From NCBI GenBank assembly GCA_001618615.1, contig LKHB01000181.1, forward strand, positions 2,210 to 66,209: 64,000 nucleotides of DNA. Reading direction: 5' to 3'. The notes beneath the pieces are model-generated. The model was not told the DNA's origin, searched no databases, and was given only the letters and a program-made list of their open reading frames with translations. The DNA comes from Candidatus Fermentibacter danicus. GTDB lineage: Bacteria; Fermentibacterota; Fermentibacteria; Fermentibacterales; Fermentibacteraceae. The translations under genes and the position numbers were made by a program. This document shows positions 1,883-35,570 of this stretch, in pieces. Every line of letters begins with the position of its first letter. Position 1 is the stretch's first letter.

Positions 1883-3157
1883 CTAGTCCGCCAGCCTCGC
1901 GAACCGCGGCAGCAGTTCGTCAAAGGCGTGCTCCAGCGTCACTATGCCCTCCATGCAGAAGCGGTCGTTCACCACGGGCACGGCGTGCAGCCTGAACTTC
2001 ATGAAGATGGCTGCCACCTCGTCGAGGTCGTCGTCCGGCGCGAGCGTGGCCAGCCTCCTGTTCATGAGCCCGGAAAGGGGCGTTTCCGGTGCCGATCCGA
2101 GTATGTGGCGCAGGGAGACGACCCCTGCCAGATGGCCTTCATCGCCGTCGAGGCAGTAGATGTAGCTGATGAACTTGATCTCCGCAACCTTCTCCTCGAG
2201 TATGCGCCTGGCCTCCAGGACCGTGGCCCCGGCGGGGCATGTGATGTACTCGACCGTCATGAGCGTGGCCGCGGTATCGTCCTCGGCCTGGGAGAGCTTC
2301 TCGATCCGCTCCCTCTCCTCGTCCTCCATCTCGGCCATGATGTCCTGCTGGGCGTATTCCGGCAGCAGTTCGACGAGATCGACAGCGGCTGCCGGCTCCA
2401 TCTCCTCGATGATGTCGGCTGCGGTAGCGGAGTCGAGATCCCTTATGATGGCGGCCTGCACGTCCTCCTCCGCCTCCTCCAGTACGTCCGCGAGCTGCTC
2501 GGTGTCGAAGGATCTGACCATGGCCAGGCGCTCTCCAGGATCGAGTTCCTCGATGATGTCCGCCAGCTCACCGGGGTGAAGCTGCTTGAGCTGCTCCTGG
2601 CGGAGCGTCAGCTTGACCGGCTCCCTGCCGGGCGCCGGAAGCGGCTGCACGTATTTCCAGGAGACGAGTTCGTTGTCGAGCTGCCTGTGGAATGCCGAAA
2701 CGACCCTTCTCAGGCCGCCCTCGACTCGCAGGCGCCTCGCCAGGCCCGTCATTCCGATGTCCACGTGCACCAGGAACATCCTGCCGGAGTGGACCAGAAG
2801 ATGTATGTCGTTTACACGAACCACCTTGGCCCCTTTGACGTCTACCACCTGCTTGTCCAGCAGCCCCTTCTGGAGAAGGTGCATCTCCGGGCGCGGAAGA
2901 CCAGACAGCCGCCCTGGCTGGCGCTTCAGCGCACTTCCGGAGAGCAGCGCATCGCAGAGAGCCGCATCCATCCTGATGGACACCGGCCCCTTCCTTGTAG
3001 AGAAGACAGCCGCTTCGATCTCGGGGAACTTCTCGGAGAACGATGCTACCAGATCGATCAGTCTGCCCGAGAACGCCCCATCCTCCGAACGGACTCTTCT
3101 TCCCAACAGGTCGGACATGAAGAGGAAAACGCTCCCGCCCGTCATCCCCATCGCCAT
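1883..3157 (-). CDS. Soluble MgtE N-terminal domain plus tandem CBS-domain protein with a PRC-barrel-like N-terminus and no membrane domain
   Basis: 424 aa. The acidic helical region (ELADIIEELDPGERLAMVRSFDTEQLADVLEEAEEDVQAAIIRDLD...) resembles MgtE_N. The C-terminal ~120 aa (TVEYITCPAGATVLEARRILEEKVAEIKF...LHAVPVVNDRFCMEGIVTLEHAFD) is a CBS pair. No TM segments. Immediately upstream of mntH on the same strand. An alternative start at MSDLLGRR (~3118) is possible. Confidence 0.65.
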   Translation of the reverse strand: MAMGMTGGSVFLFMSDLLGRRVRSEDGAFSGRLIDLVASFSEKFPEIEAAVFSTRKGPVSIRMDAALCDALLSGSALKRQPGRLSGLPRPEMHLLQKGLLDKQVVDVKGAKVVRVNDIHLLVHSGRMFLVHVDIGMTGLARRLRVEGGLRRVVSAFHRQLDNELVSWKYVQPLPAPGREPVKLTLRQEQLKQLHPGELADIIEELDPGERLAMVRSFDTEQLADVLEEAEEDVQAAIIRDLDSATAADIIEEMEPAAAVDLVELLPEYAQQDIMAEMEDEERERIEKLSQAEDDTAATLMTVEYITCPAGATVLEARRILEEKVAEIKFISYIYCLDGDEGHLAGVVSLRHILGSAPETPLSGLMNRRLATLAPDDDLDEVAAIFMKFRLHAVPVVNDRFCMEGIVTLEHAFDELLPRFARLAD

Positions 3158-3945: not shown

Positions 3946-6180
3946 TCATGCTCCGTGCTCCGGTGCGTCCCGCTTCAGGAAGAGGGCCGCGAGGGGGGGC
4001 AGGGAGAGCGATACGGAGTGAGCCATCCCGTTGCGCGGCTGCGGGTCGGATGCCGTTCCTCCGAGGTTTCCGGTTCCGCTCCCGCCGTAGGAGGATGCGT
4101 CGGAATTGAGCAGCTCCCTGTAGAAACCGCCCTCCGGCACGCCTATCCTGTACCCGTGTCTGGGTTCGGGGGTGAAGTTGAAGACGCAGATCACGCATCC
4201 GCCCCCGGAGTCCCTCCTGGCGAAGGAAACCACGGTGCTGTCCGTATCGCTGAAATCGATCCACCTGAAGCCCGCCGGATCGTGATCCAGTTCGTGCATG
4301 GCGGGTTCGCGTGACAGGAGGGAGTTCAGATCCCGGACGAGGGACCTGATCCCCCGGTGCGGGGCGTATTCGAGCAGGTGCCAGTCCAGTTGCGAATCGT
4401 GGTTCCACTCCGACCTCTGACCGAATTCGCCGCCCATGAAGAGCAGCTTCTTCCCGGGATGAGCCCACTGATAGCACAGGAGGAGTCTGAGATTGGCGAA
4501 CCTCCTCCAGTCGTCGCCGGGCATCTTCTCCAGGAGGCTCGACTTGCCGTGCACGACCTCGTCGTGGGAGAGCGGCAGTATGAAGTTCTCGCTGTAGGCG
4601 TAGAGCTGCGAGAAGGTGAGATTGTTCACGTGGTACTTCCTGTGGACGGGATCCAGCGCGAAAAAGCCGAGCGTGTCGTGCATCCAGCCCATGTTCCACT
4701 TGAAAGAGAAGCCGAGTCCTCCTCCATCCGGGGGTCTGGTCACGGAGGGCCAGGCGGTGCTCTCCTCCGCGATCGTGAAGGCGCCCGGAAACAGGCTGTG
4801 AACCCGGTCGTTCAGCATCCGGATGAAGGCGACGGCATCGAGGTTCTCCCTGCCGCCGTAGCGGTTGGGGATCCATGCGTCCCTCCCGCGCGAATAGTCG
4901 AGGTAGAGCATCGAGGCCACCGCGTCCACGCGCAGCGCATCGATGTGGAACCTGTCGAACCAGGAGATGGCCGCGGAGATCAGGAAGCCGCGGACCTCGT
5001 TCCTTCCATAGTTGAAGATGAGCGTTCCCCAGTCCGGATGCCTTCCGAGCCTCGGATCATCGTGCTCGTACAGGGCGGTGCCGTCGAACCTGGCCAGGCC
5101 GTGGGCGTCGGAGGGGAAGTGGGCCGGGGTCCAGTCGAGGATGATCCCGATTCCCGCCGCATGCGCCCTGTCCACGAAGCGGGCGAAATCCTCCGGAGAG
5201 CCCAGCCTGCTCGTTGGAGCGAAGTATCCCAGAGTCTGGTACCCCCAGGACCCGTCGAAGGGATGCTCCATCACCGGGAGCAGTTCGATGTGGGTGAAGC
5301 CCATATCCGATACGTACGGCAGGAGCGCGTCCGCGAGTTCCATCCAGCCGAGGAACGGCCGGCCGTCGTCCGGTCTGCGCCAGGAGCCGGCATGGACCTC
5401 GTAGATCGAGACCGGGGAACTGAAGCGCCCGGCGGCGGCTCTGCGGGTCATCCATTCCCCGTCGGTCCACTCGAATCCCGATGCGGATGAGACTACGGAA
5501 GCCGTGGCGGGGCGAATCTCGAACCGGGAGGCCACCGGGTCGGCCTTCTCACGGACGACCCCGTCGCATCCGAGGATCGCGAACTTGTAGAGATCGCCCT
5601 CCCGGAGCCGCGGCACGAACAGCTCCCATACGCCCGACGCCCCTCTGGGGCGCATCGGGTGCCTCCTGCGGTCCCAGGCGTTGAAGTCGCCTGTCACGCT
5701 CACCTGTCCTGCGTTGGGAGCCCAGACGGAGAAGAGCACCCCTTCCACCTCCCCGGCCTTCCAGGGCCTGCCTCCGAAGACCTGGTGCATGCGTTCGTGC
5801 CTGCCTTCGTTGAACAGGTGAAGATCGAGTTCACCGAGCTGCGGCAGGAAGCAGTAGGGGTCCTCCGTGGCCCATGTTGACCCGTCCTCCTTCTCGAAGA
5901 CGAGAAGGTAGGCGAACGGCTGTTCGGGGCCGGGGGAGGACCACACGAAGAGACCGTCGCCGTGTACCCGGGTCATCGGGCTCCCGGCGGGGGATGTGTC
6001 CGGGGAGGTGTCGGTGCGGGCGATCCATGCCCTCGTGGCCGCAGGGCAGAAGGTCCGGATCTCCAGCCTGCCGGAGGGCCCTCCGAGCGGGTGCATGCCG
6101 AGCAGGGCGAATGGATCGGCGGGCGTCGCCTGGACTATCGACCGGATCTCGGAAGCCGTCAGGACGGTCTCGGGTTGCAT
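3946..6180 (-). CDS. glgB: 1,4-alpha-glucan branching enzyme (GH13)
   Basis: Track ORF 3946..6273. Likely start at MQPETVLTASEIRSIV (~6180). Contains the N-terminal CBM48-like region, the GH13 catalytic core (HIDALRVDAVASMLY, GFSFKWNMGWMHD) and a C-terminal domain, at about 745 aa. Confidence 0.9.
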   Translation of the reverse strand: MQPETVLTASEIRSIVQATPADPFALLGMHPLGGPSGRLEIRTFCPAATRAWIARTDTSPDTSPAGSPMTRVHGDGLFVWSSPGPEQPFAYLLVFEKEDGSTWATEDPYCFLPQLGELDLHLFNEGRHERMHQVFGGRPWKAGEVEGVLFSVWAPNAGQVSVTGDFNAWDRRRHPMRPRGASGVWELFVPRLREGDLYKFAILGCDGVVREKADPVASRFEIRPATASVVSSASGFEWTDGEWMTRRAAAGRFSSPVSIYEVHAGSWRRPDDGRPFLGWMELADALLPYVSDMGFTHIELLPVMEHPFDGSWGYQTLGYFAPTSRLGSPEDFARFVDRAHAAGIGIILDWTPAHFPSDAHGLARFDGTALYEHDDPRLGRHPDWGTLIFNYGRNEVRGFLISAAISWFDRFHIDALRVDAVASMLYLDYSRGRDAWIPNRYGGRENLDAVAFIRMLNDRVHSLFPGAFTIAEESTAWPSVTRPPDGGGLGFSFKWNMGWMHDTLGFFALDPVHRKYHVNNLTFSQLYAYSENFILPLSHDEVVHGKSSLLEKMPGDDWRRFANLRLLLCYQWAHPGKKLLFMGGEFGQRSEWNHDSQLDWHLLEYAPHRGIRSLVRDLNSLLSREPAMHELDHDPAGFRWIDFSDTDSTVVSFARRDSGGGCVICVFNFTPEPRHGYRIGVPEGGFYRELLNSDASSYGGSGTGNLGGTASDPQPRNGMAHSVSLSLPPLAALFLKRDAPEHGA

Positions 6181-6497
6181 ATCCCACTTCCCCGGGGTTC
6201 GTGACCGATCGGTGCGCGGCAGGAAAGAGCCGCCCGGAACGACGAGTATAACCGGCACGGGCCCCGGGGGCACCCGCCGGTCTCCGGTTCCCGGCAGGGG
6301 AGCGGCTGCATCATCCGTTTCAGGCTCCGGCGGATCGGGAACAACAGCGTTTCGAACCCGCCGGCCGCCACGCCCGAACCGGCGGCGCCCCGGGCTGTGT
6401 ATCGTGTCAGATGCACATCCGCCCGTTACGGATTATAATGGGAGGACACAGGGCAGGTATTCGTGGAACCCGGGGAAGCCAACAAGTACGAAAGGGG

Positions 6498-7010
6498 ATG
6501 CTCGTGATCATCTACGACTATGGCGGACAGAACGATTTCGACGCCTTCGGCCTCTTTGCCGGTATAGCCGCTTTCGGAGTCGTCGCCGTGATATTGCTCG
6601 GTGTACTCTCAGCGGTGATCTTCTACCTGTTGACGATGCAGAAGGCCCTGAACCGCTGTTCCCCGGCAAACCGGACACTGGAGCCCGGTATGGTCTGGCT
6701 TCAGCTCATTCCCGTTTTCGGCATGGTCTGGAGCTTCATCGTCGTTCTGAAGACCAGCGAATCACTCGGGGCGGAGCTGCGGCACCGCAACATCCCCGGG
6801 ATGGAGAGCAGCCCGGGCAGGGGAGTCGGTCTGGCAAGCTGCATCCTGTCGGCCTGGGTCTCGCTGGTGGGGTGGATACCGTATGTGGGACAATGCCTGT
6901 CTTCCCTTCCCGGGCTGGCCGGCATTGTGTGCTGGATCGTCTACTGGGTCAGGATTTCCAGGACCGTCCGGTTGCTCGACCAGTCGCCTGCAAACGCCGG
7001 AGCGGCATGA
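6498..7010 (+). CDS. Hypothetical small polytopic membrane protein
   Basis: Track ORF 6411..7010. A plausible start is MLVIIYDYGG (~6498). Three to four hydrophobic segments. No recognisable family. Confidence 0.4.
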   Translation: MLVIIYDYGGQNDFDAFGLFAGIAAFGVVAVILLGVLSAVIFYLLTMQKALNRCSPANRTLEPGMVWLQLIPVFGMVWSFIVVLKTSESLGAELRHRNIPGMESSPGRGVGLASCILSAWVSLVGWIPYVGQCLSSLPGLAGIVCWIVYWVRISRTVRLLDQSPANAGAA

Positions 7011-7132: not shown

Positions 7133-7480
7133 CTACGCCTGGGGCTCCCCGGACTGATCGGGCTTGAGCAGGTTGAGCTTGAAGCCAAACTGGCCGATGA
7201 GCGGCAGGGGCACGGCCTTGCCGCCGAAGCCGTTGAGGGCGCCTATGACGAGCAGCACGAGGCAGAACAGGGCCCAGAGCCATCCGATGACGGGGATGAT
7301 GCCGAGGAGCATCGCTATGAGGAGAATGATGGACTGCTGGCAGTGATAGAGCACGAACCTGTTCTCCTTGCCGGTCAGGTAGGCGATGAGAAGCCCTATC
7401 CAGGTGATGTAGGCGATTCCGGCCATCGTCTTGCCCTCGTCGATCTCCTGCTGCGTGAAAGTGTAGTTCGGATCCATCAT
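7133..7480 (-). CDS. DUF4870-like small membrane protein
   Basis: Track ORF 7133..7555. Likely start at MMDPNYTF. The pattern KTMAGIAYITWIGLLIAYLTGKENRFVLYHCQQSIILLI is typical of the DUF4870 family of two-TM proteins. Confidence 0.55.
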   Translation of the reverse strand: MMDPNYTFTQQEIDEGKTMAGIAYITWIGLLIAYLTGKENRFVLYHCQQSIILLIAMLLGIIPVIGWLWALFCLVLLVIGALNGFGGKAVPLPLIGQFGFKLNLLKPDQSGEPQA

Positions 7481-7657
7481 ACCCCTTTCGAGTCGAGCAC
7501 GGCCGAGCCGCGCCTCCCATAGCGTGCGACCCGCCCGAGCGGGACCGCCCTCCACGGAACGGGAACCAGTTACTCACGGACACGATATTGTCGTTTATGT
7601 CCGGCGTAGTGTCAACTCCACCGCAACCGGCATATAATAAGGCTTGCCGGACGAACG

Positions 7658-8155
7658 GTGAGCCCCTGCATGGCAGAGCATGAAAGGCCGGAGATGACGT
7701 ACGAAGAATCCAACCTCAAGCTGATTGCCATTTTCCATTACGTCCTGGCCGCCTTCATCGCGATGTTCTCGACGATACCCATGCTGTATCTCGGCATGGG
7801 GATATTGATCAGCCTCGCTCCAGCGGTCTTCGAATCCTCCGGCCCGTCGGCCCGGGATGTTCCTCCGGTCATTCTCGGCTTGCTCTTCGGAGCGATAGGC
7901 CTTGCCGGAACGCTGCTGGTCCTTGTTTTCGCAGCCCTCCTGTTCTTCGCGGGGCGCAATCTCCAGAAGGCCAGGCACATGGATTTCTGCACAGTCGTGG
8001 CGGCAGTGTCGTGCCTGTTCATGCCCCTGGGAACCATTCTCGGCGTTTTGACTCTCCTGGAACTGAACAAGAAGGAAGTGCGGGAGCTGTTCGACCCGCC
8101 GGCACCGGGCGGCCCTGTGCCCCCGGTTGCATCCAGCCCCCGCGTCGTTGACTGA
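7658..8155 (+). CDS. Hypothetical membrane protein (4 predicted TM, Pro-rich C-terminus)
   Basis: 165 aa hydrophobic ORF with no family recognised. Coding status is inferred from length, hydrophobic periodicity and its position between genes. Confidence 0.4.
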   Translation: MSPCMAEHERPEMTYEESNLKLIAIFHYVLAAFIAMFSTIPMLYLGMGILISLAPAVFESSGPSARDVPPVILGLLFGAIGLAGTLLVLVFAALLFFAGRNLQKARHMDFCTVVAAVSCLFMPLGTILGVLTLLELNKKEVRELFDPPAPGGPVPPVASSPRVVD

Positions 8156-8200
8156 GGAAGGGGCCGGAACTAGCTTTTCCCGACGAAGTGGAGGTCGCTG

Positions 8201-8551
8201 ATGCCCGTCCAGACCGATGGCGATCGCCGGAGCAGCCCGAGAGCCAGGGTTGACCTTGGTGTAAGCATCAACATCGAAAACACGCCGGCGATCCCGGTCA
8301 CGGCCCTCAATCTCAGCGCTTCGGGGATATACTGCGTCTCGAAGGAGCGGACGGGCGAACTCACCAGGGTCGATCTGGTCCTGAAGCTCGACGACGAATT
8401 CGTAATCCCGGCCAGAGCCGTCATCATCCGCGAGGAGGAGCTTCCGGACGGCAACTTCGGCCTGGGGATGTTCTTCACAAGCATCCTCGACGAGCACAGG
8501 GCGCTGATAGCCGAACTCGTCTCGGGGACGCGGACGGGAGACAGAGCGTGA
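8201..8551 (+). CDS. PilZ-domain protein (putative c-di-GMP receptor)
   Basis: 116 aa. The RxxxR motif (RRSSPRARV) and the D/NxSxxG motif (NLSASGIY) are the two PilZ c-di-GMP-binding signatures. Its stop overlaps the next gene's GTG start (GTGA). Confidence 0.7.
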   Translation: MPVQTDGDRRSSPRARVDLGVSINIENTPAIPVTALNLSASGIYCVSKERTGELTRVDLVLKLDDEFVIPARAVIIREEELPDGNFGLGMFFTSILDEHRALIAELVSGTRTGDRA

Positions 8552-9627
8552 AGCCCGTTCTTTTCGGCATCATCGTATCGGCCTCCCTCCCGGCCGTGGC
8601 AGCCAAGTACGCAGGGGAGTTCATGTATGTCGGCGCCGGCGCCAGGGCGCTCGGCATGGGCGGAGCCTTCTGCTCCGTAGCAGACGACGCGACTGCCGCC
8701 TACTGGAACCCTGCCGGCCTCGTCTCCCTCCCGGGGCGCGAGATTCAGCTCATGCACTCCGAGAGATTTGGAGGGCTGGTCAAGTACGATTATCTGGCCT
8801 ATGCCCAGCCCTTCGGCGGTTCCGCCATCTCGGCGAGCCTCTTCAGAACCGATGCAGGAGACATAGCCGACACGACAGGTCTGGAGTGGCTCGACACCGG
8901 GTCCGACGGCGTCGCCGGCGAAGACGGGGCGGGCGTCCCGGGAGACTCCGGCAGCGACGACTACGATCCCCTGACCAATCCGGGCGGCACGGAGAACAAC
9001 GGTCGGTGGGATCCGGGCGAGGAGCTAATTTACGACGAGGGCCGCATCTCATGGGGAAGCGCCGTCGACTACGCCCTTTATCTCTCCTGGGCCCGCCCCC
9101 TCACGGACGAACTCTCCCTGGGCGCAAGCATGAAGATCATCCAGCGCACCCTCATGGACCACAGCGCCTTCGGTGCCGGTCTGGACGCAGGGATCAGATG
9201 GACGCCCAGCGATGTCTTCGCCGCCGGGCTCAATATCCAGGACGCCGTGGGAACTCATATCTTCTGGGACACCGGCAGCAACGAGAGCGTCGTACCCACG
9301 GCAAAGCTCGGCGCCTCGACCGTATGGAGCCTCGGCAGGCTCTCCACCGTCGTGACCGTGTCGGCGGACGGCGACTTCAGGTTCGAAGGCAGGAAGTACT
9401 CCGCACAGTATCACGTCGGTGACGTCAGCCTGGACACCCACTTCGGAGCGGAGTTCCTGGTAAGGGACAGAGTCGCACTGAGGCTCGGAACCTCCGAAGG
9501 ATCCTTCACGGCCGGAGCCGGCCTCAGGATCGGGATAATGGGGCATCCCGTCAGCCTCGACTACGCCTTCCTCGGCCACGAGGATCTCGACGACACTCAC
9601 AGAATCTCGCTCGGCATAGGCATCTGA
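8548..9627 (+). CDS. FadL/PorV-like (OmpP1/FadL/TodX superfamily) outer-membrane beta-barrel protein
   Basis: 359 aa with a signal peptide. The N-terminal YVGAGARALGMGGAFCSVADDATAAYWNPAGL matches the FadL-family N-terminal hatch motif (GxGRAxxMGGAxxAxxDDAxAxxxNPAGL). A Gly/Asp-rich loop follows. The C-terminus has the alternating aromatic/hydrophobic pattern of terminal beta strands (LDYAFLGHEDLDDTHRISLGIGI). Confidence 0.65.
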   Translation: MKPVLFGIIVSASLPAVAAKYAGEFMYVGAGARALGMGGAFCSVADDATAAYWNPAGLVSLPGREIQLMHSERFGGLVKYDYLAYAQPFGGSAISASLFRTDAGDIADTTGLEWLDTGSDGVAGEDGAGVPGDSGSDDYDPLTNPGGTENNGRWDPGEELIYDEGRISWGSAVDYALYLSWARPLTDELSLGASMKIIQRTLMDHSAFGAGLDAGIRWTPSDVFAAGLNIQDAVGTHIFWDTGSNESVVPTAKLGASTVWSLGRLSTVVTVSADGDFRFEGRKYSAQYHVGDVSLDTHFGAEFLVRDRVALRLGTSEGSFTAGAGLRIGIMGHPVSLDYAFLGHEDLDDTHRISLGIGI

Positions 9628-9638
9628 CACCCTCCCGC

Positions 9639-10241
9639 ATGACGCTGAGCGAAGAACTACTCAGGAAGTCGATACATCTGGCTTCCGTGGTCATCCCCCT
9701 TACCGCCCTCCTCGTGGAGAAGACGCTGCTCGTAGTCGTCCTGGCCGTCGCCGCCCTGGCCCTCCTGCTCGTAGATTATCTCAGGCTCAGGAATCAAGGC
9801 TTCAAGGCCTTCTTCCTGTCCGCCTTCGGCGAGCTTCTCCGGAAGCACGAGAAGCAGGGCGGGATCACGGGCTCTACCATCCTGGTCGCCTCGGCCGCTC
9901 TGACGATACTCATCTACAGGCAGGAGACCGCAGTGGCGGCGCTTGTCTTCCTGAGCCTGGGCGACAGCATGGCCGCGCTGGTGGGCAGGAGATACGGGAG
10001 GGTGAAGCTCGTCTGCGGGAGGACTCTCGAAGGCAGCCTGGCGGCGCTGATAAGCTGCCTTTTCGCGAGCGCGGTCCTGCTGCTCATAAGCCCTGTCTTC
10101 CACTGGAACCTCACCCCGCCCGTGCTCATCGCCGGTTCCGTCACCGCCGTCCTGGTCGAACTGATCGACATCCCGCTCGACGACAACTTCAGGATTCCCA
10201 TCATATCGGGGCTCGTCATGGAACTCCTGATCCCCGGCTGA
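9639..10241 (+). CDS. Short-form CdsA-like membrane protein (phosphatidate cytidylyltransferase / polyprenol kinase family)
   Basis: 200 aa with 5-6 TM segments. GDSMAALVGRRYGRVKLVCGRTLEGSLAAL resembles the CTP_transf_1 signature (GDxxASxxGxxxGK...SPxKTxEG). Confidence 0.5.
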   Translation: MTLSEELLRKSIHLASVVIPLTALLVEKTLLVVVLAVAALALLLVDYLRLRNQGFKAFFLSAFGELLRKHEKQGGITGSTILVASAALTILIYRQETAVAALVFLSLGDSMAALVGRRYGRVKLVCGRTLEGSLAALISCLFASAVLLLISPVFHWNLTPPVLIAGSVTAVLVELIDIPLDDNFRIPIISGLVMELLIPG

Positions 10242-10289
10242 GCTGTGGTGGAAAGCGGCGGCCGTCCCACCCGCAGAGGCGCCTACTGG

Positions 10290-11615
10290 ATGGAAGTCTA
10301 TGGGTGCCAGATGAATGTGAGCGACTCGGAGATCATCCGGGGAATCCTGGAGAGCGCCGGATACAGGCAGGTGGACGATCCGGGTGACGCAGACGCAGTC
10401 CTGGTCGTGACCTGCGCCGTTCGTGAACACGCGGAGACGAGAGCCATAGGCAGGCTGACCCAGCTCGGAGCGGGAACCGGCGGAGAGGGGCGTCCCGTCA
10501 CGGTAGTCTGCGGATGCGTGGCCCAGGAGCACGGGAGTTCCCTGCTGGAGAACTATCCGGCCATCGACATCGTGGTCGGACCCGACAGATACCTCGAACT
10601 TCCCGATCTTATCCGGCGCGGCAGGGCCTCCGCGACCGGGTTCTCGCCCCACCACTACGAAGGGGTCGAGCCCGTCAGGAAAACCTTCCCGCGCTCCTTC
10701 GTGACCGTCATGCGAGGCTGCGACAACTTCTGCAGCTACTGCATCGTGCCTCACGTGCGGGGACGGGAGAGGAGCAGGCCCGCCGCCGACATCCTGCGCG
10801 AGGTGTCCGGGCTCGTCTCCTCGGGTTACGGGGAGATCACGCTGCTGGGCCAGAACGTGAACTCCTACCGCTCCGGGGAGCTGCGTTTTCCGGAACTCCT
10901 CGGGATGGTTTCGCGGGAGGCCCGCGGAGCCTGGGTCAGATTCGTCACCAGTCATCCCCGCGATCTCACCGATGACCTCGTGGAGACGATGTCGCGGTGC
11001 CGCAACGTCTGCCGCCAGATCCACCTGCCCGTACAGTCCGGCAGCGACCGCATCCTCTCCGCGATGAACAGGGGCTATTCGAGGGCCGGGTATCTCGACA
11101 AGATCAGGAAACTCAGGGAGGCGATGCCCGGCATCGCCCTCTCGACCGACATGATCGCGGGATTCCCCGGAGAGAGCGAGGAGGACTTCGAACTCAGCGC
11201 TTCGCTTCTCGAAGAGGTCCGGTTCGACCAGGCCTTCCTCTTCAGGTATTCGGAGAGGGCCGGCACTCCCGCCGCCTCGATGGAAGGCTCCATACCCGTC
11301 GAAGTGAGGCTCGAAAGGCTTTCGAGGCTCCAGGAGATCCAGAGATCGATAACGCGCGCCTGCTCGGCCGCGCTCTCGGGTAGAGAGATGCCGGTACTCA
11401 TCATCGGACCCGGCGCAAAGCGCGGCCTTCTGCAGACCCAGGGCCGGACGGCGGGGAACAGAGTGGTGGTGTTCGAGGGCAGGCAGGCCGAGGCGGGGAG
11501 GTTCGTACTGGCGCGCATCGGCTCGAGCGACGGCTGGACGCACTTCGCGGATCTGGTACGCCCGCTCGGGACGGAGGAGGGTTTCGAGGCGTCGGAGTCA
11601 TGGCGCGAGTGTTGA
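10290..11615 (+). CDS. miaB: tRNA-2-methylthio-N6-dimethylallyladenosine synthase
   Basis: Track ORF 10245..11615. Likely start at MEVYGCQMN. Has the MTTase N-domain, a radical SAM CxxxCxxC (CDNFCSYC) and a TRAM domain, with full-length similarity to the MiaB family. Confidence 0.9.
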   Translation: MEVYGCQMNVSDSEIIRGILESAGYRQVDDPGDADAVLVVTCAVREHAETRAIGRLTQLGAGTGGEGRPVTVVCGCVAQEHGSSLLENYPAIDIVVGPDRYLELPDLIRRGRASATGFSPHHYEGVEPVRKTFPRSFVTVMRGCDNFCSYCIVPHVRGRERSRPAADILREVSGLVSSGYGEITLLGQNVNSYRSGELRFPELLGMVSREARGAWVRFVTSHPRDLTDDLVETMSRCRNVCRQIHLPVQSGSDRILSAMNRGYSRAGYLDKIRKLREAMPGIALSTDMIAGFPGESEEDFELSASLLEEVRFDQAFLFRYSERAGTPAASMEGSIPVEVRLERLSRLQEIQRSITRACSAALSGREMPVLIIGPGAKRGLLQTQGRTAGNRVVVFEGRQAEAGRFVLARIGSSDGWTHFADLVRPLGTEEGFEASESWREC

Positions 11616-12637
11616 AACGGATCGAGAGAGCCTCCAGGAGGCTGCTCACCCGCCTCCTCAGGGGGCCGTCGCAATGTGCCGAATCCGATGCACCGCCTCC
11701 CGAGCCCTCGTCCATCCTCGTCACCAGGCCGGATTCACGGCTGGGAAACCTCGTCCTCACCCTGCCTCTCCTGGAAGGCCTCAGGAGCAGGTTCCCCGAA
11801 GCACGCCTGACGCTGCTGGCCAGCGACAGGTTCGCCGAGCTGCCCACCCTCATGGGATTCGACGTAATCCCTGTCGACAAGGCCAGGATGGCCTCGCACC
11901 CCTGGCTCTTCCCGGGGTTCGCGCGAAAGCTTCGCAAGCGTGGATTCGACTGTGCGATCGACGCTTCCCATCCGTTCGCGTTCTCACTGTCCGGGGCGCT
12001 GGTCGGCCGACTCGCGGGCGCCCGCACGAGGATAGGCTTCGCCTCGGGGGACTACGAGGGCTGGTACACCCATGCGGTCCCGGGCCTCTCGAAAAGCGAC
12101 CACGAGAGCAGGACCATCCACAGGCTGGGGTCGGTATGGCCGCGTTGGCCGGCATATTCGCCGCCACTTCTCCGCACGCCCGGACGGAGCCGATGCCGCT
12201 CCATAGGGGTCCATGTCGGGGCCAGCAGGGGGAAGGTCTATCCGCCGGACAGGTTCTCCAGGCTCGTCGCCGGGCTTGCCGGCATCGGGAGGGTCATCCT
12301 GTTCTGGGGAAGCGAAGGCGAGAGAAACCTCGCCGTCCGGCTGGCGGCGGATGCGGCCGCCTCGGGACTGCAGACCGTCACCGTGTCGGATCCGCTGTCG
12401 ATCGCGGGTCTTCTGGACTCGTTCGCCGGTCTCGATCTGCTGGTGACTGCGGACAACGGGCCCATGCACGTCGCCTACGCCCTGGGAACGCCGGTGATAG
12501 CTCTCTTCCGCGTGCAGAACCATGACAGGTTCGGGCCCCTGTCGGAGGGATCGGTCGTCCTCTACGATCCGGACGGCCCGGATCCGGAGAGAGTCATCCG
12601 CGCAGTGAAGGCTGTCCAGGCCGGGATCCGTCCCTAG
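11600..12637 (+). CDS. Glycosyltransferase family 9 (LPS heptosyltransferase, RfaF/RfaC-like)
   Basis: 345 aa. ILVTRPDSRLGNLVLTLPLLEGLRSRFPEARLTLL, the paired Rossmann layout and the C-terminal DNGPMHVAYALGTPVIALF motif are typical of GT9 heptosyltransferases. Confidence 0.8.
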   Translation: MARVLKRIERASRRLLTRLLRGPSQCAESDAPPPEPSSILVTRPDSRLGNLVLTLPLLEGLRSRFPEARLTLLASDRFAELPTLMGFDVIPVDKARMASHPWLFPGFARKLRKRGFDCAIDASHPFAFSLSGALVGRLAGARTRIGFASGDYEGWYTHAVPGLSKSDHESRTIHRLGSVWPRWPAYSPPLLRTPGRSRCRSIGVHVGASRGKVYPPDRFSRLVAGLAGIGRVILFWGSEGERNLAVRLAADAAASGLQTVTVSDPLSIAGLLDSFAGLDLLVTADNGPMHVAYALGTPVIALFRVQNHDRFGPLSEGSVVLYDPDGPDPERVIRAVKAVQAGIRP

Positions 12638-15141: not shown

Positions 15142-16713
15142 ATGAGGGTCCGCGATCTGATAGAGCAGAAACACCGGGGACATGCAGTCGCAGCCGTCGA
15201 TACGAGGGGGCTCGTGGTCGCCCTCGAGGACGAAGCCAGGCCGGGATCGACCTACAAGGCCGTCCCTCCATGGGTGACGGAGGGCCGCGAGGTCTACAGG
15301 AGGAGTCTCATCCTTGCCCTGGACGAGGCATGCAGACGGACCTTCCCCGACTCGAAGCTATGGGTGGAGCACGCGCTCTCGCTGGGGTACAAGTGTCGTC
15401 TGGAGGAGCGGCCGGCGATGGCCGGCGCGGCGATGTGCGACCTCCTCACGGAGGCTCTCCGTGCCGTCATCTCGGAGGACATCACCTTCGAATCCTTCGA
15501 GGCTGGTAATGGAGAGGGGCCGCCGGAGCTGCTCGACTGGTGGGACGGCTCGACCAGGTTCAGGATGAATCGCCTCTGCAGGAGCACCGCCTTCGGCGCC
15601 GGCCCGGTGCTGCCCTCCACCGGGATGCTCGAACTCTTCGAGCTGCGCCCGCTGAATGCCGGCTTCGTCCTGAGGTTCCCGGGGTCCCTGGAATGGCCCG
15701 CCATCGCTCCCTGGGAGGACAGGCCCAGGCTCGCGAGAGAGTTCGACCTCGAGGAGAAGCACGGGGCGAGGATGCGCGTGAGGACCATTCACGAGCTGAA
15801 CTCCAGGATCGAGGAGGACGGCGGTCTCGAGATCGTCGCAATGAGCCACTTCTACCAGGAGTACAGGCTGACCGAGATCGTGATGGCGCTGGAGGGCATG
15901 TTCCCCCGGAAGCGCGTAGTGACCATCGCAGGGCCATCCTCCAGCGGAAAGACGACCTTCACGAAACTTCTAGGCATGTCCCTGCGCGCGCAGGGGTTCG
16001 GTGTCGAGAGCATAAGTGTCGACAACTACTTCCGGAACAGGGAGGAGACCCCCAGGGACTCCAACGGCGAAATGGACTTCGAATGCCTCGAAGCGCTGGA
16101 CACGGAACTCTTCGGCAGGCATCTGAGCGAGCTTCTGGCAGGGAAGGAGATAAGACTGCCTGTCTTCGACTTCAAGACAGGCCACAGGCTCGATGACCAG
16201 ATACCCATGCGCCTGACGCCCAACGATTTCCTGCTGATAGAAGGAATCCACGGTCTGAACGACAGCCTGACCCCGGGCGTGGATCCTTCCTGCAAGTACA
16301 GGATCTATGCCTCCGCCCTGACCCAGATGAACATCGAGAGGCTGACGCGCATGTCCACATCCGACTCCAGGCTCCTGAGGAGGATGACCAGGGACCACAG
16401 GACCAGGGGCTATTCCGCAGAGGAGACCATCGGAAAGTGGCCCAGCGTAAGGCGGGGGGAGAGGCGCCACATATTCCCGTTCCAGGAGATGGCCGACGCC
16501 ATGTTCAACTCGTCGCTTCCATACGAGCTGCCTGTGCTGAAACCCTTCGCCGAGCCGATTCTACGCTCCGTCCCCGAAGGAAGCCCCGCCTTCGACACGG
16601 CGCACAGGCTGCTCTCCGTCCTCTCTCTCGTGAAGCCGATAGACGCGTCTGTCGTCCCGAGGCTGAGCCTTCTCAGGGAGTTCATCGGAGGCCATCTCCT
16701 CGGTCAGGGGTGA
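15142..16713 (+). CDS. Uridine/nucleoside kinase (PRK/Udk) family protein with a ~270 aa N-terminal extension
   Basis: 523 aa. Walker A GPSSSGKTTFTKLLG. The downstream VDNYFRNREETPRD...LLIEGIHGLND layout is typical of uridine kinase-like P-loop kinases. The N-terminal domain is unassigned. Confidence 0.7.
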   Translation: MRVRDLIEQKHRGHAVAAVDTRGLVVALEDEARPGSTYKAVPPWVTEGREVYRRSLILALDEACRRTFPDSKLWVEHALSLGYKCRLEERPAMAGAAMCDLLTEALRAVISEDITFESFEAGNGEGPPELLDWWDGSTRFRMNRLCRSTAFGAGPVLPSTGMLELFELRPLNAGFVLRFPGSLEWPAIAPWEDRPRLAREFDLEEKHGARMRVRTIHELNSRIEEDGGLEIVAMSHFYQEYRLTEIVMALEGMFPRKRVVTIAGPSSSGKTTFTKLLGMSLRAQGFGVESISVDNYFRNREETPRDSNGEMDFECLEALDTELFGRHLSELLAGKEIRLPVFDFKTGHRLDDQIPMRLTPNDFLLIEGIHGLNDSLTPGVDPSCKYRIYASALTQMNIERLTRMSTSDSRLLRRMTRDHRTRGYSAEETIGKWPSVRRGERRHIFPFQEMADAMFNSSLPYELPVLKPFAEPILRSVPEGSPAFDTAHRLLSVLSLVKPIDASVVPRLSLLREFIGGHLLGQG

Positions 16714-17159
16714 TACCCGACCGAAAGAGGGCGAGGGCAGGCCGACCCGGACGCCTCTAGCGTCCGTGGATATAGCCTCATCGCAAGGCGGGTTGCGGCT
16801 GCCGCTCGAAATCGTGCGGAGCCTGAGGCGTCGACGCTCCTGTCCGCGGGAGCCGTTCCTTCGTATGCTTCGTCATGATGACCGCCGGGACGGCCCGGCG
16901 GTTCGGCAGTGCCCCGAAGCAGGAGGAGGCGCCCATGGCTCCCCGCCCGGCTGGATGGTTCCGCCGCGGCCCTCCGGGAGTCAGAGAGAACAGCCTCGCC
17001 GGCGCACCGGTGTATTCGGATCCCGCATCTCCGGCGGATCGTCGGATCGACCTCGCAGCCCCCTCACGAAATCGTCATCGGAAAAGCAGTGAAGATCGCA
17101 CTCGTTCGATAACTTCGTCCGGCATGGCGCAGTGTTCCGGAAGACAGCCGGGACAGGAG

Positions 17160-17663
17160 TCATCCGCGGAGCCTTCTCCTCTGGATCTCACAGGCCACCA
17201 TCGCGATCACGCTCGCTACGTTGAGGCAGTCGCGGAAGCCCGACTGAGGGAAGTGGATTACCATGTCCGACCTGTCGAGCACGGCCTTCGATATGCCGAG
17301 AGCCTCGTTGCCGAACACGAATGCGTCGGAGGGGAGGAATCCCGCATCGAGCATGGAAACGCTGCCTGCGGTCCTCTCGACGGCGATTATCCTCCTGCCC
17401 GTGGCGGATGCCCATTCCGCCGCGTCCTCCGCCCGTTCGAAACGCATCCAGGGTATGGAGTTCTGAGTCCCCCTCGCGGAGTGCGCGAGTTTCCGGTTGC
17501 CCGGCACGGCGCAGACGCCGCAGAGGAACACGGCGGATGGGTAGACGGCCTCCGCCGTCCTGAACGCCGAACCCACGTTGAAGGCGCTTCTGAAGCCGTC
17601 GAGTATGAATACCGGCGTATCGCCTGGAGAATGCAGCCTCGGGGAGGGGAGGGCTGACATGAC
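17160..17663 (-). CDS. SpoU/TrmH-family RNA 2'-O-methyltransferase (TrmL-size, ~165 aa)
   Basis: Only the C-terminal part of track ORF 17160..18242 is credible. FILDGFRSAFNVGSAFRTAEA...AVERTAGSVSMLDAGFLPSDAFVFGNEALGISKAVL...CLNVASVIAMVACEIQRR are the SPOUT motifs. The upstream part of the track ORF is antisense to comEC and was rejected. Confidence 0.7.
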   Translation of the reverse strand, partial: VMSALPSPRLHSPGDTPVFILDGFRSAFNVGSAFRTAEAVYPSAVFLCGVCAVPGNRKLAHSARGTQNSIPWMRFERAEDAAEWASATGRRIIAVERTAGSVSMLDAGFLPSDAFVFGNEALGISKAVLDRSDMVIHFPQSGFRDCLNVASVIAMVACEIQRRRLRG

Positions 17664-18951
17664 TCTGTCGGGATGGGTGTTCTGGATCACGGCATCGTAC
17701 ATCTGCGGAATATACCTCGCTCCATGCCTGCATCCGGCCTTCGGAACGGCCGTTGCCGCCGCCGGGCTCGCAGCGGCTGCATTCGGAAAACGCACCGCCG
17801 GGAGGCTGCTTCTCGCCTCGGGATTCTTCCTCCTGGCATACGAGCCTAAGGTAGCCGGAGCAGGGTCGGGCCTGCAAGCCCCGGGTCGCTCCGGAGTTTT
17901 CGAAGGCGTCGCGGAGCGGGTCACGAGGGAGGGGGCGATCCTCTCCTGCGACGGCGTGAGGATCTGGCTGAACGGCAAGTCGATCCATCTCGACACCATG
18001 GAGGGAGATTCCCTGAGGGTCCTCGGTCTCGAATCGTGGGGATCGCTCGCCGTATGCGCCCACACGGTCCGGCCGGGCTCCGGATTGTTCGCGCGTCTGC
18101 GCCGGACTGCGGTTTTGACCTGGAGGGAGAGGCTGGGGGAGGGTCCGACCTCCGCGCTGGTGGCCGCCCTGCTGTCGGGTGAGCGGTCCGGGATTTCCGA
18201 TACAGTCAGGGATCTGTTCAGGGAGACCGGGACCATCCACATCCTCTCCGTGTCGGGCTATCACGTGGCGATCGCGGGCTCGCTCGTCTATCTGCTGATG
18301 GGCGCGGCCGCCCGGAGGAGGCCGCTGCTCGCGGCCTTTCTATGCTCACTGACCACCGGCGCCTATACGCAGTTCTCGGGGGCAAGGCCGCCGGCCGTGC
18401 GCGCCACGGTGATGGCCACCGCGGCCGTATTCCTGTCCGCTCTCGGAGTGAGATCGCCGGGGACCGCCGTCTGGTCCCTGGCTGCGGCGGTTGTCCTGGC
18501 GACTTATCCGGGCGCCGCCTTCGACGCGGGCGCGCAGATGTCGTTCATCGCGGTGCTGATCCTCATCGTGTACAGATGGAGAATGGGAGGGGGGTGGACC
18601 CGGCCTCTGCAGGCCCTTCTGGCGGGCGTCTCCATAACCATCGGGCTCGCCCCGGTGCTGGTGCCGCTCTACGGCGGGCTCGCCACGGCTTCGGCGCCGG
18701 CGACGGTCGTCACGACGCCGCTGATGGCCTTCACGATGCTGACCGGCGCCCTGACTCTGCTGCCCGGGGTGTGGCATCCCGCGGCAAGGCTTACGGAATG
18801 GGCGGTCTTCCTCTGGCTGTGGATTCTCGAGTTTGCGAAGCTGCCGGTGGTGTATTTCGAGGGTTCCTTCTGGATCTGGCCGTGGCTCGCGGCGATGATC
18901 CTCATGTGGCTCGTCTCCGAGCGCAGAACCTTCCTGCGGAGGTTCCGCTGA
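17659..18951 (+). CDS. comEC: ComEC/Rec2-family DNA internalisation channel protein (competence domain only, no MBL domain)
   Basis: Track ORF 17578..18951. Likely start at MTLSGWVFWITASY. A polytopic protein with the conserved competence region (ALLSGERSGISDTVRDLFRETGTIHILSVSGYHVAIAG). Confidence 0.8.
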   Translation: MTLSGWVFWITASYICGIYLAPCLHPAFGTAVAAAGLAAAAFGKRTAGRLLLASGFFLLAYEPKVAGAGSGLQAPGRSGVFEGVAERVTREGAILSCDGVRIWLNGKSIHLDTMEGDSLRVLGLESWGSLAVCAHTVRPGSGLFARLRRTAVLTWRERLGEGPTSALVAALLSGERSGISDTVRDLFRETGTIHILSVSGYHVAIAGSLVYLLMGAAARRRPLLAAFLCSLTTGAYTQFSGARPPAVRATVMATAAVFLSALGVRSPGTAVWSLAAAVVLATYPGAAFDAGAQMSFIAVLILIVYRWRMGGGWTRPLQALLAGVSITIGLAPVLVPLYGGLATASAPATVVTTPLMAFTMLTGALTLLPGVWHPAARLTEWAVFLWLWILEFAKLPVVYFEGSFWIWPWLAAMILMWLVSERRTFLRRFR

Positions 18952-18954
18952 GGC

Positions 18955-19632
18955 TCACTGGATCAGGAACGTGATGAGCACGCTTCCGCCGTTGTCCAGC
19001 GCATCCTCCGTGTGGTCCAGTCCCAGGGCCTCCACCCTCGCGCCGAGTGGGAGATCGAGCGTCAGCGTATCGCCGGGCAGCGCGGCGGCGGCCCATCTGC
19101 CCTCGTTGGGGCTGTGCACGACCAGGACCACCAGGCCGTCATAGCCGCTCAGGTTGTCGTCCTGGACGAGCACCGTGTACCTGCCGGCCGGGAGGGAGAT
19201 GTCGCGCGCCCTGTCCATGACCCCGAGATGATAGGCGGCCGATACCGTCATGCTGGGTGTGAGCTGGGGGATGAACGGAAGGAACCTGACCGAATCCACG
19301 GAGGTGGGAGTCGTCGCCACCACGAGGACCGAGTCCGTAAAACCGGGATCGGGGTGCCATGTGACGCTGCGCCCGGTCGCCGTGGGCTCTCCGGTTTCCG
19401 AGAAGCGGCCCGCGGAGCATGTCCACACGGCCGATCCGCCGTCCGGCATCAGCGTGGAGAGGTATGTGGTGCCCGATCCGGAGGCATCGATCGAGGCTAT
19501 GATCCCGGAATCGTCCGATCGCTGTCCGAAGCTCTCGGACACAATCCAGACGCCCAGGGCCAGGATGGGGATGACGAAGGGGAGGGATATGGCGAGGAAT
19601 GATCTGATCCTGTTCGAGGTTCTGCTTCTCAT
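18955..19632 (-). CDS. Hypothetical secreted or membrane-anchored protein
   Basis: Track ORF 18955..19905. Likely start at MRSRTSNRIRSFLAISLPFVIPILALGVWIV (signal anchor). Composition suggests a beta-rich domain. No family recognised. Confidence 0.4.
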   Translation of the reverse strand: MRSRTSNRIRSFLAISLPFVIPILALGVWIVSESFGQRSDDSGIIASIDASGSGTTYLSTLMPDGGSAVWTCSAGRFSETGEPTATGRSVTWHPDPGFTDSVLVVATTPTSVDSVRFLPFIPQLTPSMTVSAAYHLGVMDRARDISLPAGRYTVLVQDDNLSGYDGLVVLVVHSPNEGRWAAAALPGDTLTLDLPLGARVEALGLDHTEDALDNGGSVLITFLIQ

Positions 19633-33832: not shown

Positions 33833-33919
33833 GTCATACTCCAGGCCCGACCGGCAGCGTGGAACCGTTGTCATCGGGGAGGGTATCAGATAGATTGATC
33901 GCCAGAACACGGAGGTCCA

Positions 33920-34825
33920 ATGAGACGAATCCTGCCGGTGGCTCTGTTCGCCTGCCTCACGGCTCGCGCCGATGACGGAATATACCGGGACGCGGGCGCT
34001 TCGGCCTTCCAGTTCCTGAAGGTCGAAGTCTCCGCCCGCGCGGCCGCTCTGGGCGGGACGGTACTGCTGAACTCGGGCCCCCTTTCAGGGATGTCGTGCC
34101 CTTCAGGGCTGGCAGGGGTGGACGGCCTCACCCTCACGGCCTGCCATGCCGGCTATCTGGGCTCCGCCACTCAGAATGCGGCGGCCCTGACCTGGGGCGG
34201 AGGGCGATTCCGATTCTCCGCCGGCATCAGCACCATTTCCGCCGGCGGTCTCGAATATCGCGGGGACGTGCCTACCTCCGAGCCTCTCGGAACCTTCGAC
34301 TATCTCGACCTCGCCGTATCCGGAGCCGCGGCGGTGAGGCTCGGTGCGGTGGATGCCGGTCTGGGCGCCAAGATCATCCACGAGGAGATCTGGGATACGG
34401 ACGACTGGGGCATGGCTGTCGACGCATCCGCGGCCTTCCATCCGACAGGCTGGCTCGACATCGCACTGGCGGTCCAGAACGTGGGGCCTTCGGTCGATTT
34501 CGGCGAGAGGCCCGGTTACAGGATGCCCATGACCTGGAGGACGGGCGCCAGGGTCACCCCGGTCCTCCCTCTGGCCGGTCCGGTCTCGGTCTCCGCCGAG
34601 ATGTGCAAGCCCATAGACAACGAGGTCTCGGGCGGAGCGGGAGTCGAACTCAATCCGGTCGGCTGGCTCGATCTCAGAACCGGTTACAGGTTCGGTAGCG
34701 ATTCCCAGGATCTCACCGCAGGGCTCGGGCTCTCATACGGCGGGTGGGCACTCGATTACGCCTGGATTCCCGGCGCGCTCTCCCTCGGGGACGTACACCG
34801 GATCGTCCTCACAACCCGGCTCTGA
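33920..34825 (+). CDS. FadL/PorV-like outer-membrane beta-barrel protein (paralog of 8548..9627)
   Basis: 301 aa with a signal peptide (MRRILPVALFACLTARA) and no N-terminal hatch motif, unlike its paralog. It has the same C-terminal architecture (GLSYGGWALDYAWIPGALSLGDVHRIVLTTRL versus LDYAFLGHEDLDDTHRISLGIGI). Confidence 0.6.
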   Translation: MRRILPVALFACLTARADDGIYRDAGASAFQFLKVEVSARAAALGGTVLLNSGPLSGMSCPSGLAGVDGLTLTACHAGYLGSATQNAAALTWGGGRFRFSAGISTISAGGLEYRGDVPTSEPLGTFDYLDLAVSGAAAVRLGAVDAGLGAKIIHEEIWDTDDWGMAVDASAAFHPTGWLDIALAVQNVGPSVDFGERPGYRMPMTWRTGARVTPVLPLAGPVSVSAEMCKPIDNEVSGGAGVELNPVGWLDLRTGYRFGSDSQDLTAGLGLSYGGWALDYAWIPGALSLGDVHRIVLTTRL

Positions 34826-35568: not shown

Positions 35569-35570
35569 CC

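Follow-up and report, generated by a model that had tools for sequence, protein, structure and literature searches.

Introduction

The outer-membrane protein PorV serves type IX secretion as a shuttle: it picks up cargo that bears a C-terminal sorting domain at the translocon and hands it to the PorU sortase, which attaches it to the cell surface. In Bacteroidota the genes porU and porV are adjacent. Stand-alone and YcgR-type PilZ proteins, receptors for the second messenger cyclic diguanylate (c-di-GMP), bind partners in a c-di-GMP-dependent manner, MotI and YcgR acting on the MotA stator and MapZ on CheR1. In the Alg44–AlgE, BcsA–BcsC, PelD–PelBC and LapD/LapG systems, meanwhile, what is exported or displayed at the surface depends on the level of c-di-GMP. 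Here we analyze a stretch of 64,000 nucleotides from Candidatus Fermentibacter danicus (contig LKHB01000181.1, positions 2,210 to 66,209; hereafter the window) that holds, on its forward strand, a gene for a stand-alone PilZ domain protein (8201..8551) whose end overlaps the start of a gene for a predicted outer-membrane β-barrel of the PorV/PorQ family (8548..9627).

The locus resembles the Alg44, BcsA, PelD and LapD systems in that a c-di-GMP receptor is encoded together with an outer-membrane component. In those systems, however, the receptor is itself an inner-membrane part of the machinery and the cargo is either polysaccharide or an adhesin secreted by a type I system, whereas the receptor predicted here is small and soluble and its outer-membrane partner is of a type IX family. 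The type IX shuttle itself is represented by PorV of Flavobacterium johnsoniae (PDB 6H3I and 8GL6) and by PorV (LptO) of Porphyromonas gingivalis (PMC5562754). Classical components of c-di-GMP signaling have been reported missing from P. gingivalis (PMC10101095). PorX, a response regulator of the type IX system, is a pGpG-binding protein that cleaves oligonucleotides, both linear and cyclic (PMC9757075); this provides a precedent for nucleotide signaling that touches type IX secretion. An earlier note on this DNA, made from the sequence alone, had held that the pairing of a PilZ gene with an outer-membrane barrel gene is not a described module; indeed, we found in the literature no description of a PilZ–PorV pair or of a link between PilZ and type IX secretion.

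Results

Overlap of the PilZ and Barrel Genes

Both open reading frames (ORFs) lie at the coordinates given above, and their overlap can be read directly from the sequence: the PilZ gene ends inside the start codon of the barrel gene, just as the earlier note had described. The junction, spanned by gacagagcGTGAagccc, contains the tetranucleotide GTGA (8548..8551, + strand), within which the TGA stop codon of the PilZ gene (8549-8551) meets the start of the barrel gene, an arrangement typical of translational coupling. Shine–Dalgarno-like sequences on the same strand precede both genes: GGAGG at 8190..8194, 6 nt before the ATG of the PilZ gene, and GGGAGA at 8536..8541, within the PilZ coding region and 6 nt before the GTG at 8548. 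The two ORFs are alike in their coding-type composition, with a G+C content at third codon positions of 0.80 in each; the overall G+C content of the sequence is 64%. A scan for promoters and terminators returned sites at the level of consensus matches only; no terminator was found between the PilZ and barrel genes, and a promoter-like site (7609-7638, a consensus match) precedes the gene for a 165-residue membrane protein farther upstream. Because the stop and start codons overlap and a Shine–Dalgarno site lies inside the upstream gene, coupled expression of the PilZ protein and the barrel is implied, and by these signals the genes are predicted to be a translationally coupled two-gene unit. 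The co-expression that had been proposed for them is plausible, as the tight spacing of the pair is conserved everywhere (see below).

A Stand-Alone PilZ Protein

The product of the upstream gene, 116 residues long, matches the PilZ profile PF07238 over positions 1-100 of 102, with a score of 37.6 bits as compared to a gathering cut-off of 22.5. An alignment places the two c-di-GMP-binding motifs at R10-S-S-P-R14 (RxxxR; 8228..8242, + strand) and N37-L-S-A-S-G42 ([D/N]xSxxG; 8309..8326, + strand). Residues R10, R14, N37, S39 and G42 were unchanged in 25 of 25 aligned homologs, a set that takes in two Eisenbacteria-type proteins (from loci L006 and L032) with 26-28% identity. The hidden Markov model (HMM) score and the invariance of both motifs thus bear out the earlier description of the protein as a single-domain PilZ protein with both c-di-GMP-binding motifs.

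The AlphaFold2 model of the protein (predicted local distance difference test [pLDDT] 76.4) has six strands and a C-terminal helix at residues 97-108. When the model was compared with the PDB using Foldseek, the top matches were all PilZ domains with template-modeling (TM) scores of 0.6-0.7, many of them solved with bound c-di-GMP; MotI/DgrA (5vx6), Alg44, YcgR, BcsA, MapZ and MrkH are among the fold matches. The sole match by sequence in the PDB was YpfA/MotI of Bacillus subtilis (E 3e-8), and MotI is the closest solved relative by both sequence and fold. Like MotI/DgrA (5VX6), YcgR and MapZ/PA4608, the window protein has a single PilZ β-barrel with the RxxxR and [D/N]xSxxG motifs and a C-terminal helix. 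Unlike YcgR, it is without a YcgR-N/PilZN domain, and its context is a putative outer-membrane sorting barrel rather than flagellar or chemotaxis genes. No signal peptide and no transmembrane or hydrophobic segment was detected in it (maximum Kyte–Doolittle hydropathy [KD19], 1.13). As judged by HMM, motifs and fold, the PilZ gene is predicted to encode a soluble cytoplasmic c-di-GMP receptor.

A Barrel of the PorV/PorQ Family

The downstream gene starts with GTG and encodes 359 residues, of which the first 19 (8548-8604, + strand) are, by sequence, a signal peptide that ends in AVAA, before KY. The N-terminal segment that follows is strongly conserved (KYAGEF...GARALGMGGAF...YWNPAG) and contains, as aligned, an NPAG hatch motif (8707-8718, + strand). 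The earlier note had recognized here the N-terminal hatch motif of the FadL family, and the NPA motif of the FadL superfamily is indeed present in YWNPAG (residues 52-57), with W53, N54 and P55 invariant and A56 nearly so. This motif is common to FadL and PorV-family proteins, however, and does not discriminate between them.

Profile HMMs did discriminate. The barrel passed the model for the PorV/PorQ subfamily, NCBIfam NF033709, with 99 bits (cut-off, 90). The best-scoring model was that for PorV2, a putative type IX sorting system protein (NF052325), for which the barrel failed to reach the cut-off (160.6 versus 325), as it did for PorQ (NF033711, 48.5 versus 220), PorV (NF033710, 28.5 versus 250) and the Pfam model of PorV (PF19572, 15.3 versus 27). 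It likewise failed for UPF0164, a family of treponemal FadL-like proteins (PF03687, 19.5 versus 21.4), to which many of its homologs carry a precomputed match, and for Toluene_X, the FadL/TodX family (PF03349, 14.4 bits versus 29.7, E 0.014).

The fold and the sequence profile pointed the same way. In a search with the AlphaFold2 model of the barrel (pLDDT 85.2, predicted TM score 0.77), the best E-value and the highest TM scores came from 8gl6_F (E 2.9e-12) and 6h3i_F, the PorV chains of SprA–PorV translocon structures, with TM scores of 0.64-0.66; TbuX was second by E-value, and TbuX, TodX and FadL gave TM scores of 0.46-0.54. A profile built from 74 homologs of the barrel and run against the whole PDB matched PorV alone (E 5.6e-8), and the identity of the barrel to solved PorV is 15-16%. 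Like FadL, TodX and TbuX, the window barrel has a 14-stranded architecture, a hatch and the NPA motif, but it lies below the PF03349 cut-off, has no profile match to those proteins and is structurally nearer PorV. On the HMM scores, the sequence profile and the ranking of folds, we ruled out an assignment to the FadL family and place the barrel, by sequence and predicted structure, in the PorV/PorQ family, with a FadL fold yet outside the FadL family. Of the earlier label "FadL/PorV-like," the PorV/PorQ part has therefore stood, through the subfamily HMM, the PDB and fold matches and orthologs adjacent to PorU (see below), and the FadL part has not. The choice between PorV and FadL by HMM was likewise settled at the level of the subfamily, the PorV equivalog and Pfam models and PF03349 all being below cut-off.

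A feature that distinguishes the barrel from its relatives in other phyla is an acidic, Asp/Gly-rich insertion in a predicted loop (residues ~110-165; 8875..9042, + strand; columns 150-200 of alignment A1). This insertion, DTGSDGVAGEDGAGVPGDSGSDDYDP..., is long in Fermentibacteria, whereas other phyla have a shorter form or none, and the pLDDT across it is low, at 50-66. It could be a calcium-binding loop or a loop that contacts cargo.

Conservation of the Pair

In Fermentibacteria the PilZ gene is directly upstream of the barrel gene at every locus, with barrel identities as low as 61%. When metagenomes were scanned with the PilZ alignment, 41 loci were obtained, 36 of them at an identity of at least 44%. 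In 34 of the 34 loci that could be assessed (the remaining two of the 36 reach the end of a contig) the barrel gene lay directly downstream of the PilZ gene. The gap between the genes, as called, was -4 to +15 nt in 29 of the 34; the larger negative gap in the other five is an artifact of mechanical calling, in which the barrel ORF starts too far upstream. The overlap of -4 seen in the window recurs in L088, L089 and L094, the gap is -1 in L091-L093, and it is 0 to +15 nt in most others.

Outside Fermentibacteria the pair was found at four loci, L006 and L129 (from two genomes), L032 and L011. Two of these, L006 and L032, are labeled Eisenbacteria, and L011 is from an uncultured bacterium. Upstream of PilZ in L006 and L129 is the gene for RNase R, as compared to the block of membrane-protein genes and GlgB in Fermentibacteria, and a convergent gene for an SLT/LysM transglycosylase lies downstream. 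The sole constant partner of the Fermentibacteria-type PilZ gene is the barrel gene. The adjacency of PilZ and barrel exceeds chance, and the synteny of the pair, which the earlier note had seen in a single stretch, holds in all of the assessable loci and in the four outside Fermentibacteria with their other upstream flanks.

PilZ proteins of the same subfamily, recognizable by the motif LNLSASGIYC, are also encoded at L124 (3998-4366), L125 (905-1801) and L126 (572-1437), where there is no barrel gene. In these low-GC organisms the PilZ gene belongs to a cluster in which the order of genes is HIT family, PilZ, a DUF-like protein of ~172-175 residues and a membrane protein (L124 and L125), and a second, weaker PilZ directly follows the first in L125 and L126.

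Barrel Orthologs beside PorU in Other Phyla

A scan for the barrel family with one genome per species gave 80 loci across the Fibrobacterota–Chlorobiota–Bacteroidota (FCB) group. At 15 of them a gene for a PorU-type C25 sortase lies directly upstream of the barrel ortholog; the source genomes include Eisenbacteria-like, Bacteroidota, Coatesbacteria, Poribacteria and Gemmatimonadota ones, and two of the sortases pass the PorU equivalog cut-off of 420 (428.8 and 421.4). With the sortase gene in this position at 15 loci, the barrel family is taken to partner PorU, as PorV does, in phyla beyond Bacteroidota too. Neither the window nor any other Fermentibacteria locus has a PorU gene beside the barrel gene; PilZ fills that position instead. 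The SLT/LysM transglycosylase gene downstream of the PilZ-linked barrels of Eisenbacteria is also found downstream of the PorU-linked barrels of L007, L012 and L016, as well as downstream of a barrel with neither partner in L130. Since this downstream gene is common to both, the PilZ-linked and PorU-linked barrels of Eisenbacteria are positional orthologs, and by gene order PilZ sits in the slot that is held in sister lineages by PorU and a 99-residue protein. In a neighbor-joining tree the PilZ-linked, PorU-linked and unpartnered groups of barrels made up one superclade. The window barrel is thus like PorV in its FadL fold with an NPA-bearing N-terminal plug and in having orthologs directly downstream of porU, and unlike it in its lineage-specific acidic loop insertion and in having PilZ, not porU, as the upstream gene; its setting also differs, in that no core type IX genes were seen in the window.

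We considered whether PilZ proteins might be hidden upstream of the barrel in further phyla. A Pfam scan of 76 ORFs directly upstream of barrel genes, which covered short ORFs (60-300 residues) and left out the large PorU-type genes, found PilZ in six, making it the most frequent family; all six were already known, and the idea was rejected. The proteins of ~99 residues that separate the PorU-type sortase from the barrel in L007, L012, L013 and L016 were similarly rejected as cryptic PilZ proteins, as PilZ HMMs, Pfam and NCBIfam gave no match. Proteins of this kind (~95-100 residues), which share an EAMRLS motif, occupy this place in Eisenbacteria-like loci (L007 7644-7943; L016 5540-5839; L012 2512-2796; L013 4415-4720; L015 ~5580-5792) and are probably, by their sequences, a separate charged family, helical by eye. 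At Eisenbacteria-like PorU loci, a conserved protein of 431-442 residues without a known family is encoded 3' of the barrel gene, followed by the convergent SLT/LysM gene.

Indications of Type IX Sorting in the Lineage

Relatives of the window carry a gene for an M1 peptidase with a Por_Secre_tail domain ~7 kb from the pair (L001, L003 and L005). A second, distant barrel of the PorV/PorQ family, 301 residues long and not linked to PilZ, is encoded in the window itself (33920..34825, + strand); it was found with the barrel HMM (E 4e-13), passes NF033709 (94.6 versus 90) and scores 55.1 against the PorQ model (cut-off, 220). By sequence it may be a PorQ-like paralog. Taken with a FlgD_ig protein encoded beyond the window, the Por_Secre_tail cargo of the relatives and the second paralog suggest, indirectly, that the lineage uses type IX sorting.

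We note some details of these regions. In L001 the Por_Secre_tail peptidase gene and a ferredoxin gene (together at 18037-20883) lie between a PRK-family gene and comEC; the corresponding part of the window (16713-17578) is without both and has only an ORF of no family (16875-17657) that overlaps the start of comEC. At L132, which is from the same species, the segment at 15265-20648 (~5-10 kb past the 3' end of the window) encodes the FlgD_ig protein, of 539 residues, and then a VWA/DUF58 (Bat-like) cluster. The second barrel gene is flanked by a gene for an LplA/B-type ligase (33020-33910, - strand) and one for a 776-residue DUF3857/transglutaminase-like protein (35025-37355).

Genes Flanking the Pair

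Immediately upstream of the PilZ gene, at a distance of 45 nt, is a gene for a polytopic membrane protein of 165 residues (7658..8155, + strand; maximum hydropathy 2.62) with no match in Pfam or NCBIfam. Farther upstream are two more genes for small, hydrophobic membrane proteins that matched no family above threshold (6411-7010, + strand, and 7133-7555, - strand). The earlier note had singled out three small upstream membrane proteins of unknown function; all are hydrophobic and without a family, but they are not constant partners of the pair. Even the nearest, the 165-residue protein, is matched by a homolog just before PilZ in 20 loci but by none in 23, so that about half of the Fermentibacteria loci have it. 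(The 20 comprise 19 automatic calls and L111, where the homolog overlaps an extended PilZ ORF call.) The 165-residue protein is therefore an optional third member of the cluster, and we rejected it as an obligate partner of PilZ. The protein encoded at 7133-7555 is represented by one copy in the window and by a tandem duplication in many Fermentibacteria relatives (L005, L009, L106 and L111-L118); its L001 homolog has a weak match to MamF_MmsF, and a faint one was seen in L133.

Downstream, 11 nt after the barrel gene, is a gene for a 200-residue membrane protein (9639..10241, + strand) that we assign, by the names of its homologs, to the SEC59/DGK1/VTE5 ("dolichol/polyprenol kinase") family: close homologs bear that name and distant ones carry PF01148, and the protein itself has no match in Pfam or NCBIfam. 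Wherever a Fermentibacteria locus reaches far enough, this gene follows the barrel. In Zixibacteria, Gemmatimonadota, Ignavibacteria and Calditrichia it likewise lies ~0-3 kb from the barrel (L017, L022, L023, L030, L055, L056 and L067), and immediately downstream in L067, from Gemmatimonadota, so that its association with the barrel is wider than that of PilZ. Neither this gene nor that for the 165-residue protein is in the Eisenbacteria PilZ–barrel loci. Three nucleotides after the kinase-family gene comes miaB, for a tRNA methylthiotransferase (10245..11615, + strand; TIGR01574, 417 versus 355), which is syntenic in L001-L005; barrel and miaB are also adjacent in the Eisenbacteria locus L131. 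The end of miaB is overlapped by a gene for a family 9 glycosyltransferase (GT9) of heptosyltransferase type, for the lipopolysaccharide (LPS) core (11600..12637, + strand; PF01075, 77.7 bits), which is present in L001 and L002 and not in L003 or L005.

The rest of the window is taken up by housekeeping genes, for Nramp, MgtE-N/CBS, GlgB, MiaB, GT9, XseAB, PRK, ComEC, Ddl, KdtA, Dus, MurJ, UvrC, MutL, BamB-like, ScpAB and Cmk proteins. The domain arrangements of two of these genes are worth noting. A 614-residue protein (25277-27121, + strand) is apparently a KdtA fusion, with DUF374 (residues 60-126) joined to the N-terminal domain of Kdo transferase (247-414). A 424-residue protein (1883-3157, - strand) has MgtE_N and CBS domains and no match to the MgtE membrane domain, its counterparts in L003 and L005 having all three.

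As for the host, close homologs of three window proteins in a large protein collection are named Candidatus Fermentibacter, Fermentibacteria, Aegiribacteria or Sabulitectum. A PilZ–barrel locus 100% identical to that of the window is present on a metagenome contig of 831,891 bp. Proteins of the host occur in hundreds of assemblies from sewage and anaerobic digesters; a PlsC-type acyltransferase and Nramp were each found in ~250 blocks of the collection.

Discussion

We propose, tentatively and with a little less than even confidence, that the PilZ–barrel pair reflects a genuine functional link of a c-di-GMP receptor with a PorV-type sorting barrel. Gene context makes a connection between c-di-GMP and PorV-dependent surface sorting plausible: as the pair has persisted in two candidate phyla despite rearrangements, PilZ and PorV may take part in one and the same process. 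Their different compartments rule out direct contact of PilZ with PorV, and the value of a common operon would lie in co-expression rather than in the formation of a complex. Most likely, the PilZ protein would instead be a c-di-GMP-dependent adaptor whose target is a part of the sorting pathway in the cytoplasm or inner membrane. By analogy with the action of YcgR and MotI on MotA, a candidate target would be a PorL/M-type proton-driven motor; alternatively, PilZ might act on the supply of lipid anchors. In either event, the surface display of secreted enzymes or adhesins would track the c-di-GMP state of the cell. A stronger version, which we think unlikely, gives PilZ the role of a switch that answers to c-di-GMP and is dedicated to type IX secretion in Fermentibacteria and some Eisenbacteria; it might be a brake or clutch on PorL/M (GldL/M), in the manner of YcgR and MotI, or a gate on the hand-over of cargo to the attachment complex.

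Several observations weigh against a functional link. The barrel is below the cut-off of all three equivalog models (PorV, PorQ and PorV2). Scans with Pfam and NCBIfam found no PorU, SprA/Sov or PorK-N and no protein with a C-terminal sorting domain in the 64-kb window, and precomputed Pfam listings showed none of these within ~10 kb on either side, apart from the one FlgD_ig protein. Nor was a GGDEF or HD-GYP-type motif found in the window by the same scans and by regular expression, or GGDEF within ~10 kb on either side; for EAL domains the search consisted of Pfam scans of the main window ORFs, which gave none. As synteny in Fermentibacteria extends over the entire GlgB–XseA block, conservation of the pair there is by itself weak evidence, and the independent support comes from the four loci outside the group, which may be one lineage. 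Most phyla that bear the barrel have no adjacent PilZ, and at L124-L126, in other organisms, members of this PilZ subfamily are found with no barrel. Moreover, the Eisenbacteria PilZ proteins score higher against these barrel-less PilZ proteins than against those of Fermentibacteria; as far as PilZ similarity goes, the pairs of Eisenbacteria and Fermentibacteria could stem from one ancient pairing or from two separate recruitments. Finally, with the two products in different compartments, any physical or regulatory link between them rests on inference.

Several of these points would also be expected if the pair were a neutral neighborhood, in which the genes are co-transcribed only through membership in an old, compact housekeeping block and the target of PilZ is unrelated to the barrel (motility, polysaccharide synthesis or metabolism). 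We consider this explanation doubtful, though a serious contender. It accounts for the synteny of the Fermentibacteria block as a whole (GlgB through PilZ, barrel, kinase, MiaB and XseAB to PRK), for PilZ relatives that lie beside HIT-family and other genes, for the many barrels without a PilZ neighbor and for the want of a further type IX or c-di-GMP gene found near the pair. It accounts less well for the persistence of the pair where the upstream genes all differ (RNase R in L006 and L129 versus membrane proteins and GlgB), for a spacing between PilZ and barrel that is short in every case (up to 50 nt), for the retention of the pair in 34 of 34 loci down to 44% PilZ identity, and for the stop/start overlap with its internal Shine–Dalgarno site, which implies coupled expression.

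Alternatively, the cluster could be a unit for the biogenesis of envelope lipid or LPS, in which PilZ regulates a membrane protein or inner-membrane enzyme of the cluster, for instance the polyprenol kinase or the 165-residue protein, and the barrel handles lipid or LPS at the outer membrane, as the name LptO, once given to PorV, recalls. The kinase-family gene after the barrel in every sufficiently long Fermentibacteria locus, and within 0-3 kb of it in four other phyla or classes, would fit such a unit, as would the GT9 heptosyltransferase gene downstream of the pair, KdtA in the window, LapA and LapB downstream of the barrel in L131, and the 165-residue protein before PilZ in about half of the loci. 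Both the kinase gene and the 165-residue protein are nevertheless absent from the Eisenbacteria PilZ–barrel loci, leaving the barrel as the only constant partner of PilZ, and 15 loci connect the barrel family with the PorU sortase; we judge this explanation improbable. Least probable of all, in our estimation, is a role for the barrel in FadL-type import, with PilZ adjusting the uptake of hydrophobic compounds or their downstream metabolism. The FadL-like fold (as seen in the TM scores of TbuX, TodX and FadL), the conserved NPA hatch motif and the weak Toluene_X match are what such an importer would show. Against this, the Toluene_X score is about half of its cut-off, the sequence profile matches PorV and no FadL-family chain, PorV is the best fold match, orthologs of the barrel are adjacent to PorU, and scans of the window found no genes of fatty-acid or aromatic catabolism near the pair.

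The barrel family has value for annotation in its own right, being, by its gene context, the partner of PorU in many phyla other than Bacteroidota and yet lying below current equivalog cut-offs. As to the proposed link between the PilZ receptor and PorV-type sorting, the design in which a c-di-GMP receptor goes with an outer-membrane export component is known from alginate, cellulose, Pel and Lap, and the type IX pathway would be a new setting for it. If PilZ does act as a dedicated switch, it would be the first second-messenger receptor wired directly to type IX secretion. Hydrolases displayed on the surface of hosts that live in sewage and digesters are also of applied interest. Post-transcriptional regulation of type IX secretion and attachment is poorly understood, and the PilZ–PorV operon, conserved in FCB-group phyla without cultured members, is a testable candidate for control of surface display by a second messenger.

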